A DNA stretch of 64,000 nt from a virus (taxonomy: Duplodnaviria; Caudoviricetes). The position numbers were made by a program, and so were the translations under genes. The stretch is taken from positions 24,633-88,632 of the IMG/VR virus record IMGVR_UViG_3300028585_000020, one strand, 5' to 3'. Below are positions 43,281 to 46,426 of the stretch, piece after piece; the stretch's first letter is position 1, and the number at the start of each line of letters is the position of its first letter. The notes under the pieces were generated by a model. The model was not told the origin of the DNA. It made no database searches and was given only the letters and a program-made list of their open reading frames with translations.

Positions 43281-43383
43281 ATGATGCCACGTATTCTTAC
43301 CGCTGTCAACAAGAATTTTACTAGGATGTTGTGCAGCCGTGCTAAGAAAGCGCTTGACAAGAATCTTACCCTTGCTGTATCCT
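43281..43383. promoter_or_regulatory. Back-to-back divergent sigma70-like promoters at the strand switch
   Basis: Minus: TTGACA-17-CATCAT (43281-43309); plus: TTGACA-18-TATCCT (43354-43383). Confidence 0.7.
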
Positions 43384-43416
43384 AAGCGAGTTGTTTCTAA
43401 TTTACAAGGAGAAGAT

Positions 43417-43908
43417 ATGGGATTTCCAAAACTGGTAAAGTGTGTGGACGACGAAGATGCCTTGTACGCAGATGGCTTCCTAGTCGCGGGGGTGAATTAC
43501 ATTGCTACAGGTGTTGAGCACGGTAGTGATTTCGTGATCGACGGTACGGCCTACTCTTGGGATATGAATCGTTTTGTGGTGCTTGAGGAAGACTACCAAG
43601 TACCGCAAGATGTGGCTCCAGAAGAATACACAGGCGCATCCGTCAGCTACTACAAACTTACCATCACTGAACGCATCGACCCAGAAGCTGAGCCTTGCGA
43701 GATTGAATGCCAAGAAGTTATCGAAGCTCTCGGCATGGATTTCGCAGAAGGAAACGCCTTCAAAGCCATCTGGCGCAAGTGTGCTGCACGTAAGTTTGGC
43801 AAAGCTAAGAAGGGTTATGATAATGGTCTTTACGACGCTGAAAAGGTTGTTTTCTTTGGGCAACGTATGCTAGCATTGGCGAAGGCATACGCCGATAAAC
43901 TTGAATAG
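43417..43908 (+). CDS. DUF3310-like protein with N-terminal extension
   Basis: Start 43417 (AAGGAG RBS); IECQEVIEALGMDFAEGNAFKAIWR..DAEKVVFF. Confidence 0.7.
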   Translation: MGFPKLVKCVDDEDALYADGFLVAGVNYIATGVEHGSDFVIDGTAYSWDMNRFVVLEEDYQVPQDVAPEEYTGASVSYYKLTITERIDPEAEPCEIECQEVIEALGMDFAEGNAFKAIWRKCAARKFGKAKKGYDNGLYDAEKVVFFGQRMLALAKAYADKLE

Positions 43909-43922
43909 GGAGAAGAAATTGA

Positions 43923-44021
43923 ATGAAGCGAATTGTTTTTAGCCTAGCAGTGGCAATCGCCATGTCTTTGTGTGTTGCTATTGGAGTGAGCTTTGTAAAG
44001 CATTACTTGAGGGTTGGCTGA
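43923..44021 (+). CDS. 32-aa membrane peptide
   Basis: MKRIVFSLAVAIAMSLCVAIGVSFVKHYLRVG, GGAG RBS. Confidence 0.5.
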   Translation: MKRIVFSLAVAIAMSLCVAIGVSFVKHYLRVG

Positions 44022-44092
44022 ATAGTTTCTGGAATGTAAGTCCAAAAAGACAACTTGGCTAGGTCATCTCACTTTAAAATTTAAGTCTGTCT

Positions 44093-44123
44093 AGGGCTTC
44101 GCAGAAATGTTGAAGCCCTTTTC
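44093..44123 (+). terminator. Intrinsic terminator
   Basis: AGGGCTTC-11 nt-GAAGCCCT-TTTC. Confidence 0.7.
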
Positions 44124-44129
44124 TTCGTC

Positions 44130-44515
44130 TGTACAATTTCACTTACAACTCCCTCACTCCCGCCTGCCGTCACAATTCCTCCCAAGCACCTTTCACAATC
44201 TTGCTCAAAAGCATCAGATTGAGCATGTCCCTAGCCTCCTTTCAGCTATTCAAAAAATGTTCTGGCAAAAGATGCCCTTATCCGCGCTAGATGGGAACTC
44301 TTGGCTGGGATGTTTCTTCACGCTCTATGTAATACACATTAGTCGCTATGAGGGATTGTTCAAGGGGAGATTGTTCGTATAGGGTTGTAGGACTCCTTGC
44401 AGATGGTTTGTCAGCTTGTAGGCCGTTCTAGTGAGCCTACGCCTATCTACTAGATAGTGCAAGCTGTGACAGTGGGTCAACTGTGAGTCAACGTGTAGAT
44501 TGTGAAATCGGTGAA
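44130..44515. ncRNA. Candidate large structured non-coding element
   Basis: Multiple nested complementary segments and a three-way junction; no credible ORF (see findings). Confidence 0.4.
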
Positions 44516-44516
44516 G

Positions 44517-44591
44517 TCACATTTGGTATTGCTTCAAAGTCAGTAAAGTTGAACAGAAGAATTTGTGTGTCTTGCTTCCTATGAGAGCCAT
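44517..44591 (-). CDS. Possible 24-aa peptide
   Basis: AGGAG RBS 5 nt before ATG; MALIGSKTHKFFCSTLLTLKQYQM. Confidence 0.35.
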   Translation of the reverse strand: MALIGSKTHKFFCSTLLTLKQYQM

Positions 44592-44695
44592 AAAATCTCC
44601 TGAGACACAATGTTGCTTCTGTTGCAAATGAGAAAGTAGGATTTCGCTTACACGGAATAAGTCAATACCTTCTGCACAATTTTTAAAAATATTTG

Positions 44696-44735
44696 TTGAC
44701 AAGCGCTTTTTACGTTTGCTATAGTTCATTCATCG
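44696..44735 (+). promoter_or_regulatory. Early promoter with TCATCG downstream signature
   Basis: TTGACA-18-TATAGT-4-TCATCG. Confidence 0.75.
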
Positions 44736-44820
44736 ACACGGCAACGACAACAAGCCTGAAGTCGAAGCTGAAACAACTAACTTATAGCCAACCGCTAAAC
44801 AAACTTAAAGGGAATACATC

Positions 44821-45567
44821 ATGAACAAGCAGACCAACACCGCAGCTAACAACCTCAAGCAACTGATCGTGCGTATCTCGCCAGTCTCGGGAGCGCCAGT
44901 TTTGTTCGACGCAAGCTCGAAACACAATGGTCAAATTTCTTGCATCGTTTCGGGAGAAGAGAAAATTGTCGGACTGGATTTTTATCAGGCCGCTGTGCCG
45001 ATGGAAGAAGATGCTGCCAAACAAGTTGTGCAAGCTTACGCTGAACGTGCTAACATCCCTCTCGAAAGTGTGGTTGTTCGTCACCGACTCCCAAAAGCTA
45101 ATATTGCGCCTCCGGCTCCACGCAAGGCTCGCAAGTTGAACGACGCTAATTTGGTGCTCGCCTCGGACAACACCAAACCTGTTAAGAAAGACGAACAGGA
45201 AAGCACTCAGGACTACCGATCGAAGTCTGAATTGGAAGCGGCAGTCCAGCAGATGCACGACAACGCAACTAAAAAGCCAACGCCGGAACCAGTGCAACAA
45301 GCTTCTGCTGAGAATCCTGAAGGTGCGACCGTGAAGCCACAAGAGCGTCAACGCAGGAAGTACGAGCGCACCGCAAAGTCTGTCCGTACCAAGCGCTCTG
45401 CTGCGGCACTTAAGCGTTATCACGAAGAGCTTCAAGCTGCGACGAAAGATAGCACTACTCTCATGGAACCTGCCGCTCACAACGCCACCCGTGAAGTTGT
45501 AGATCAGGCTACTCTGGAGTTGGCGATGGCCCTGGCAAAGATTTTGAAAGGCGGGAACTTCCTCTGA
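44821..45567 (+). CDS. Hypothetical Ala/Lys-rich protein, partly disordered
   Basis: 248 aa, highly expressed-type codons, long A/C-rich leader. Confidence 0.75.
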   Translation: MNKQTNTAANNLKQLIVRISPVSGAPVLFDASSKHNGQISCIVSGEEKIVGLDFYQAAVPMEEDAAKQVVQAYAERANIPLESVVVRHRLPKANIAPPAPRKARKLNDANLVLASDNTKPVKKDEQESTQDYRSKSELEAAVQQMHDNATKKPTPEPVQQASAENPEGATVKPQERQRRKYERTAKSVRTKRSAAALKRYHEELQAATKDSTTLMEPAAHNATREVVDQATLELAMALAKILKGGNFL

Positions 45568-46426
45568 GTCGGGGTGGTCGAGGGACGATTATGAACGAAG
45601 CGTCCCTCTTATAACCTTTTGATTTCTCCTTATGCCCGTTCATAATTTTGTAAAGGCAGTTGACATTTACACCTGTTATTTTGCTGACCTCTTGTGCAGA
45701 CCCCGTAACCACTTCACCAGTTACGTCATTTTCAACAGACACTATCCTCATAAAACCTTTTAATCTGGGATCAGATGCAGGTACAGAGTCTAGACAAAAC
45801 CCCTTGCTGTAGACTGCTTTACCTGCTATCATGTTGCTAAGGCTGGAAGTCCTAAGGCCAAACTCTGCTGTCATTTCGGCAGGAGTCCGTTCTACCTTCT
45901 CGCCGGTTACGATATTTCTGAAAACATGCTTTTTAAAACATGCTCTCTGAGCACTGAGGTTTTCTTTTAAGCAGTAATTTTCACACCTCAGAGTTACTCC
46001 ATTTGTGAGAACATTGATATTACTCTCAGGTATTCCTACTCTGGCGGCAAACTCCCTTCGGGTCATTTCAAAAGACTCTCCTGTGTTTATGTCAGCAAAT
46101 TCATATACAGTTTGGTCGTATTTACTTTCGTTATACTCTCTCCTGACAACACCGAACATTCTTCGATTTCTGACAGTCCTTCTCCCCTTCGACATTGCCA
46201 TCATTGCCCAAGCACCTTTCCAGTGGATTCCTCCGTAAGCTTTCGCAAGCAACAAATGTGCTATAAAGTGATCCTCTGCCGTCAAGTACACTAAATTCTC
46301 TTCTTCATCCCCTCCACCCATGCACCTAGGCTTAATGTGGTGCCTCTCGTAGTACACACCTTCCAGTTTCGGCATCATCTTACGATGCTCAATCAGTTCG
46401 TTGTAAATCCTCAGGTAGTCCATCAA
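45509..46426 (-). CDS. HNH homing endonuclease with NUMOD-like DNA-binding repeats
   Basis: ERHHIKPRCMGGGDEEENLVYLTAEDHFIAHLLL; three ..TGE.... repeats. Confidence 0.85.
   Translation of the reverse strand: MMDYLRIYNELIEHRKMMPKLEGVYYERHHIKPRCMGGGDEEENLVYLTAEDHFIAHLLLAKAYGGIHWKGAWAMMAMSKGRRTVRNRRMFGVVRREYNESKYDQTVYEFADINTGESFEMTRREFAARVGIPESNINVLTNGVTLRCENYCLKENLSAQRACFKKHVFRNIVTGEKVERTPAEMTAEFGLRTSSLSNMIAGKAVYSKGFCLDSVPASDPRLKGFMRIVSVENDVTGEVVTGSAQEVSKITGVNVNCLYKIMNGHKEKSKGYKRDASFIIVPRPPRLRGSSRLSKSLPGPSPTPE

Follow-up and report, generated by a model that had tools for sequence, protein, structure and literature searches.

Known non-coding regions in phage genomes

The left end of T7-like phages consists of several hundred non-coding bases placed directly upstream of the strong sigma-70 promoters A1-A3, from which the early operon starts, and iteron-type origins, such as lambda ori, P1 oriR and plasmid iterons, are characterized by tandem motifs in the same orientation within a unique non-coding locus. 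The untranslated regions of T5-like phages were found to be conserved above the neighbouring ORFs and were read as cis-acting DNA, and the untranslated repeat regions of these phages (the injection-stop-signal region) carry short repeats, dyads and palindromes (bioRxiv 10.1101/866236).

The element described here is of a known kind, a phage non-coding control region, and is documented for a family of uncultured phages. It was found in the window, which is the whole 64-kb stretch of DNA analysed and corresponds to bases 24633-88632 of an 88.6-kb IMG/VR virus record. It resembles the T5-type regions in that the early part of a large tailed-phage genome contains an extended non-coding segment with short repeats and dyads, with both order and sequence conserved above the flanking ORFs across the phage group, but it has no paired DnaA boxes, no long inverted repeat pair and no sequence similarity to them, and its gap measures 0.8-0.9 kb, compared with 1.2-1.7 kb in the T5-type regions. 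As at the T7 left end, several hundred non-coding bases lie directly before a strong sigma-70 promoter of an early operon; unlike in T7, no evidence of terminal repeats was seen, the tape-measure gene of the phage is very long (1883 aa), and the 64-kb window shows no sign of a phage-own RNA polymerase.

With iteron origins the locus shares tandem same-orientation motifs in a unique non-coding place near the minimum of the cumulative GC skew. Its modules, in contrast, are only loosely alike within one genome and are spaced 47-75 nt apart, it has no adjacent long AT-rich unwinding element, and it lies neither inside nor beside a recognised initiator gene; instead of at least three near-identical direct repeats at regular short spacing, the repeat search gave short two-copy families only. 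The size class and the phage intergenic location recall GOLLD and ROOL, the large phage RNAs of Rfam, but the locus had no Rfam match at gathering or relaxed thresholds and no thermodynamic or covariation support.

The locus and its flanking genes

The ends of the virus record (1-120 and 88513-88632) overlap, its last ~110 nt repeating its start, and this repeat identifies the 'linear' record as a circular-looking assembly overlap. A gene-free region of 0.8-0.9 kb extends over ~44022-44820, and the stretch at 44130-44515, which had been flagged by a sequence-only reading as a structured element, forms its central part. The gap is bounded as follows:

43339-43908, + strand: upstream gene, an ORF of 189 aa, left boundary of the gap
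43923-44021, + strand: small hydrophobic ORF of 32 aa, whose counterpart in the relative L007 was called as a gene (2092-2190)
44093-44127, + strand: intrinsic terminator of the upstream unit, GGGCTTC...GAAGCCC followed by TTTTCTT
44821-45567, + strand: first early gene, an ORF of 248 aa, used as the anchor for collecting relatives

The C-terminal half of the 189-aa product matched phrog_4521 and related families of unknown function, and its homologues occupy the equivalent position in relatives. The 32-aa ORF, which has the same gene size as its L007 counterpart and 54% identity to it over 28 aa, likely encodes a small membrane peptide. The terminator combines a GC-rich hairpin (-15.3 kcal/mol, z -3.4) with a T-run. 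A search for tRNA and tmRNA genes found none.

The 248-aa gene is directed rightward and heads a long run of small early genes. Its product belongs to no Pfam or PHROG family, and its fold model (pLDDT 71), an N-terminal small beta-barrel plus helices, had no PDB match at E 0.001 or better and retrieved small phage beta-barrel look-alikes only in an atlas search; consequently, the model gave no clue to DNA binding. A homing-endonuclease-like ORF (45509-46426, minus strand; phrog_655, E 2e-36) overlaps the 3′ end of this gene on the opposite strand. Different inserts were observed at the same point, namely an HNH-like 370-aa gene in L011, a 486-aa gene in L007 and none in other relatives, so that the 3′ end of the early gene looks like an insertion hot spot.

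Relatives and block-wise conservation

Relatives were gathered from the cluster of the 248-aa protein (16 members besides the window copy), from 15 IMG/VR loci and from one further locus reached via the upstream gene, giving about 25 distinct uncultured-phage genomes from many metagenomes. In all of them a gap without a conserved gene precedes the 248-aa homologue, ranging from ~580 to 915 nt and mostly from 730 to 915 nt. No match to GenBank phages was obtained by blastn of the gap, nor to phages by tblastn of the 248-aa protein, and a metagenome scan with protein alignment gave one short contig. The nearest cultured relative by DNA polymerase was Pseudomonas phage vB_PsaM_M1 (42% identity), and no equivalent gap was present in the part of its record examined.

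Alignment at the DNA level across the whole gap was obtained for L007 only (73% over 656 nt). The four-fold sites of the adjacent gene, taken as a neutral yardstick, were 44% identical between the window and L007 (40/90). Against this level, four blocks of the gap were 73-100% identical, and the segments between them 30-50%:

44130-44159, unstranded: unconserved spacer with the two leftmost boxes (44133 and 44142), 30% identity to L007
44160-44285, unstranded: Block A, 83-93% identity
44340-44378, unstranded: Block B, containing ...GATTGTTCAAGGGGAGATTGTTC and two GATTGTTC copies 15 nt apart, 80% identity
44476-44580, unstranded: Block C, 73-77% identity
44637-44740, + strand: Block D, an A/T-rich upstream tract, a sigma-70 promoter and the leader start, 83-100% identity

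The sequence comparison indicates that these discrete blocks are under purifying selection. Block A, which aligns across six genomes of the window's clade, contains a C-rich G-poor tract, TCACAAT boxes (44170 and 44193), a local hairpin (44202-44225) and two bipartite modules. The TTCAAGGGG core of Block B was also found in L008, L014, L016 and L017. Block C contains the GATTGTGAAAT box (44498), an imperfect dyad, TGTGAAAT-N5-AAGTCACA (44501-44521), and AAGTCA boxes (44513 and 44539); L008 aligns over 44562-44670.

The sequence-only reading had called the element ORF-free. This does not hold literally, as three ORFs overlap it:

44107-44382, + strand: ORF of 91 aa, starting inside the terminator hairpin
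44346-44480, minus strand: ORF of 44 aa, from the ORF list
44517-44729, minus strand: ORF of 70 aa, starting inside the -10 box of the early promoter

It holds in effect, since no frame is kept in L007, the nearest relative, and the region is therefore effectively non-coding: indels of 1, 2 and 8 nt within the conserved blocks break every reading frame. A small-protein reading was rejected on the position of the 91-aa start and the frameshift of the 70-aa ORF in L007; the latter ORF, which also lacks a ribosome-binding site, is probably spurious. A minus-strand small protein was likewise rejected, the open frames across relatives occupying different frames. In L008, a stretch 46% identical to the 70-aa ORF lies in an open frame.

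Tandem modules and their hairpins

A common anatomy was recognised across the family. Most relatives have a + strand terminator at ~-700 relative to the early gene, and a C-rich G-poor tract follows at -720 to -600, with a family-wide skew of C over G (mean -0.2 to -0.38, with single values as low as -0.88). Each gap then has two or three bipartite modules in tandem (GRCRAWAG, 3-6 nt, CCCYWHCC), and after every module comes a short GC hairpin, its 5′ arm beginning within CCC. Clade-specific blocks separate the modules from the universal promoter and the conserved leader start. In the window, module 1 reads CAGATTGAG-N5-CCCTAGCC (44215-44236) and module 2 CTGGCAAAAG-N3-CCCTTATCC (44262-44283). 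Models built on a 14-genome clade matched the module 2 region of the window in collinear order, both as an HMM (44258-44321, E 1e-3) and as a covariance model (44261-44347, E 0.012). A family-wide k-mer motif search returned mostly compositional words outside the promoter.

Two other readings of the modules were tried and rejected. A CRISPR-like mini-array or solitary repeat does not fit copies that, within one genome, are about half alike by eye and not near-identical, and a generic phage promoter motif does not fit a module that was found nowhere else in the 88.6-kb genome.

Hairpins with z below -1.5 followed the CCC motif in 19 of 37 instances, compared with 11 of 75 control positions, and their stems differ between genomes (CCCUC/GAGGG, CCGUG/CACGG, CCACUG/CAGUGG and ACCCGC/GCGGGU), with few independent events. 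No strand preference was detected, the mean difference dG(+) minus dG(-) being -0.02, with 5 G-U pairs per strand. RNAalifold gave -2 kcal/mol over 272 columns for the 14-genome clade and ~0 in sliding windows on both strands, and covariation on the model-fitted alignment was 0.060 versus 0.065 in shuffles (328 of 500 shuffles reach the score). A dyad in the larger clade's own block D behaves as an imperfect palindrome, with one of its pairs left unpaired in 11 of the 21 sequences.

A minus-strand intrinsic terminator was also observed at ~-615 to -672 in L023, L026, L029, L031, L033 and L034 (for example, CACGUUUCUUAGAACGUG followed by UUUUG). In this larger clade it faces the terminator-like hairpin of the upstream gene.

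The early promoter

Within Block D, TTGACA (44696-44701) and TATAGT (44720-44725) form a predicted sigma-70 promoter that agrees with the consensus at 11 of 12 positions and carries a TG extension, its 18-nt spacer falling in the 16-18 nt range. It is followed by the conserved leader start TTCATTCATCGAC (44725-44737). The promoter was found in 24 of the 26 relatives scanned, and the HMM of the big clade matched the promoter block of the window at E 1e-9.

The -10 box together with the leader start, CTATAGTTCAnnTCATCGAC (44720-44740), also occurs as an exact pattern at L004:9554-9573 (minus strand) and L006:2890-2909. These are unrelated GC-rich viral contigs in which CTATAGTTCAnnTCATCGAC again lies directly ahead of a first gene; the stored L004 locus ends ~120 nt upstream of it. 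Across the whole window, TTGACA-N17-TAnnnT sites with at most one mismatch numbered 48, compared with 22 +/- 5 in shuffles, an excess that fits a phage relying on the host RNA polymerase, and AAGAT precedes many of the strong sites.

A proposed cis-acting DNA control region

The gap is tentatively read as a cis-acting DNA control region that would work through putative protein binding, either as an origin or in the control of the early region; we give this reading a little less than an even chance. It fits best because primary sequence is conserved block by block, the element is unique in the genome and it lies before the first early promoter. Moreover, the gene-free gap holds the same place in the ~25 relatives, and the modules are collinear across clades. 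Sequence has been kept rather than pairing, as the near absence of a consensus structure from RNAalifold indicates, and both the strand-neutral module hairpins and the palindrome-like dyad of the larger clade are consistent with duplex DNA. The T5 untranslated regions serve as a precedent.

According to this model, 44130-44515 would be the central part of a conserved non-coding region that acts as duplex DNA and not as one RNA gene. The proposed order begins with the intrinsic terminator of the upstream unit, continues with the C-rich tract and its two tandem bipartite motifs (YAGRYWWRR, 3-6 nt, CCCTWNCC) and then with lineage-specific boxes (ATTGTK, TGTGAAAT and AAGTCA), and ends with the A/T-rich tract and the consensus sigma-70 promoter that would start the long rightward early operon. 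For the conserved blocks, the most likely role is that of binding sites for phage or host DNA-binding proteins, and the bound proteins may set the timing of the early promoter, the start site of replication, or both. If the blocks are indeed protein-binding sites, the region would be the main cis-acting switch of a widespread group of uncultured large phages and would provide a handle for finding the regulator of the group.

Several observations run against a DNA control region. The loose likeness of the modules within a genome departs from classical iterons, and besides a ~25-nt tract at the promoter the region has no long AT-rich unwinding element. DnaA-box-like sites were weakly enriched over 26 gaps (7 exact versus 1.75 expected); the window has none that is exact and one with a single mismatch, TTCTGCACA at 44670, which is kept in L007. 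IHF consensus sites were not enriched. The minus-strand terminator of the larger clade, at ~-640, also stands against this reading, and the retention of hairpins next to CCC while their stem sequences change suggests that selection has acted on a folded single strand, be it ssDNA or RNA, and not on duplex DNA.

Alternative explanations

In a rather doubtful alternative, one or more smaller ncRNAs would be made within the gap. One candidate is a ~95-nt + strand RNA covering the best-conserved stretch (~44227-44320), with a candidate start at TTCACA-17-CAGATT and an end at the hairpin before TTTCTTCA; the other, proposed for the larger clade, is a leftward RNA of ~350 nt, for which the conserved minus-strand terminator would provide the end. 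Through their C-rich motifs (CCUCC and CCCUA), such RNAs could pair with G-rich ribosome-binding sites. The excess of hairpins after CCC, with stems that differ between genomes, agrees with this explanation, as do the TTyACA and yAGnyT boxes kept in the window, L007, L014 and L017 (L007 promoter score 9.5) and the T-rich run after the module 2 hairpin in the window and L007. In the larger clade, the minus-strand hairpin and U-run show a stem swap from CACGU to GUGCG, and the conservation of this terminator implies a leftward transcript within the gap, at least there. However, the candidate promoter is weak (8 of 12 positions in the window, the spacer varying from 15 to 19 nt between genomes), the window's gap yielded neither a promoter nor a terminator in the leftward direction, and only weak candidates, with no convincing promoter/terminator pair, bound the window's conserved blocks. 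The insignificant covariation, the lack of strand bias in the hairpins and the absence of Rfam families from the window and 20 relatives weigh against smaller ncRNAs as well.

It is unlikely that the phage family, of ~85-95 kb, carries a new non-coding element of ~350-450 nt composed of tandem C-rich modules and made as RNA, serving as an anti-Shine-Dalgarno or protein-sponge RNA or as an R-loop primer. Each module would then consist of a conserved single-stranded motif and a short variable hairpin. In the R-loop variant, by analogy with ColE1 RNA II, a G-rich leftward transcript could form a persistent R-loop on the C-rich strand and prime replication.

A physical end of the packaged genome, with a collapsed terminal repeat and packaging or injection signals, was considered decidedly unlikely. 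Such an end would resemble the T7 left end or the untranslated regions of the T5 terminal repeat, and the early promoter would be the first to enter the cell. The layout (a last gene, a terminator, ~0.7 kb of non-coding DNA and a consensus host promoter leading into small early genes), the uniqueness of the element in the genome and the similarly high conservation of the T5 untranslated regions relative to neighbouring ORFs are what such an end would show, but related long contigs end at scattered positions, with no clustering in the gap, the terminase region is distant, and the ~110-nt overlap of the record ends reflects a circular assembly that is uninformative on real ends.

Even less probable is a passive transcription insulator, in which the terminator, a Rho-loading (rut-like) C-rich G-poor tract and weak hairpin/T-run terminators would block read-through from the upstream unit into the early promoter. 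The family-wide C>G skew directly downstream of the terminator and the T-rich runs after several module hairpins would suit this function; rut sites, however, need a composition and not blocks conserved at 75-93%, Blocks B and C are not C-rich, and GC-rich hairpins are unfavourable for Rho loading.

Inverted boxes and secondary structure

The sequence-only reading had proposed one ~390-nt RNA, closed by pairing of left ACAAT with right ATTGT boxes and holding a three-way junction, or else an origin-like array of inverted ACAAT boxes for an origin-binding protein. Its observations were confirmed in part. The left-cluster motifs ACAATTTCAC (44133), CTTACAACTC (44142), ACAATTCCTC (44172) and TTTCACAATC (44191) and the right-cluster motifs GAGGGATTGT (44350), GGGAGATTGT (44365), GGGTTGTAGG (44382) and GATTGTGAAA (44498) are present, as are the stem TGCTCAA/TTGAGCA (44202/44219) and the junction sequence (44409-44471), and the boxes are split as described, three ACAAT on the left and three ATTGT on the right. 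The six cores in 386 nt, where ~1.4 are expected, represent a modest enrichment; among 1273 sampled 400-nt windows of the 64 kb, none exceeds this count and 2 equal it.

Four of the six cores lie inside conserved blocks and survive in L007. The boxes located in blocks are those at 44172, 44193, 44355, 44370 and 44499, with cores kept in L007 except at 44193 (one change, TCACATT); those at 44133 and 44142 fall in the neutral segment. The ACAATTyCC box (44172) and the GATTGTkAAAT box (44498) survive in L008 too, the latter at -321 to -331 in the window, L007 and L008. The interpretation was thus supported in part, an array of protein-binding boxes in the DNA fitting better than a large RNA; against such an array, the ATTGT boxes are absent from most other relatives. 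A role of the ACAAT boxes as a general operator was rejected, as they are only ~2-fold enriched upstream of other TTGACA promoters.

Complementarity between the left and right clusters was upheld by the cofold gain (-30.7 versus -18.0 +/- 4.7 in shuffles, reached by 1 of 200; z ~-2.5) but not by the best duplex (72 of 200), and the surplus was absent in all nine relatives tested, being ~0 in L007, L008, L013, L014, L017, L023 and L029, +1.9 in L026 and -1.1 in L033. Folding of 44130-44515 did not depart from dinucleotide shuffles on either strand, and the claim that G-U pairs favour the + strand failed, the minus strand folding slightly better (-109.2 kcal/mol, z -1.07) than the + strand (-107.6 kcal/mol, z -0.45). 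Of the 122 MFE pairs, 55 are lost in L007, 14 show one-sided changes and 7 are compensated; the perfect 11-nt inverted repeat 44191/44497 and the helix 44172/44350 each lose 3 pairs there with zero compensation. The two structures drawn beyond the boxes are:

44409-44471, unstranded: three-way junction, which folds in the window genome only
44549-44627, unstranded: long imperfect hairpin between Blocks C and D (inverted repeat I2, -22.6 kcal/mol)

Folding reproduces the junction as drawn, though with no exceptional stability on the + strand (z -1.29; minus strand z -3.0), and the junction sequence is 47-60% identical to L007, which is the neutral level; 12 of its 21 pairs are broken there (helices 14-16), and the L007 equivalent folds at z +0.43. 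Rfam 15 gave 0 matches at the gathering threshold in the whole window and in 20 related loci, and relaxed thresholds returned matches only at E above 1 for 43900-44850. Two of the three outcomes named beforehand as counting against a large phage ncRNA, an insignificant folding z and no covariation support, were obtained.

With the folding, pair-conservation and Rfam tests all failed, a cofold surplus confined to the window and four box pairings that cannot all nest, the single large structured RNA is rejected as extremely improbable in spite of the junction and the cofold gain of the window. Mirror-image motifs with a neat junction, however convincing to the eye, may belong to a single genome, and one close relative sufficed to reveal their non-conservation. 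Just outside the flagged stretch, the hairpin at 44549-44627 reached z -3.1 on the + strand and -2.3 on the minus strand; its outer stem is not kept in L007, and its inner TTTGTGTGTC/GACACAA part is common to L008.
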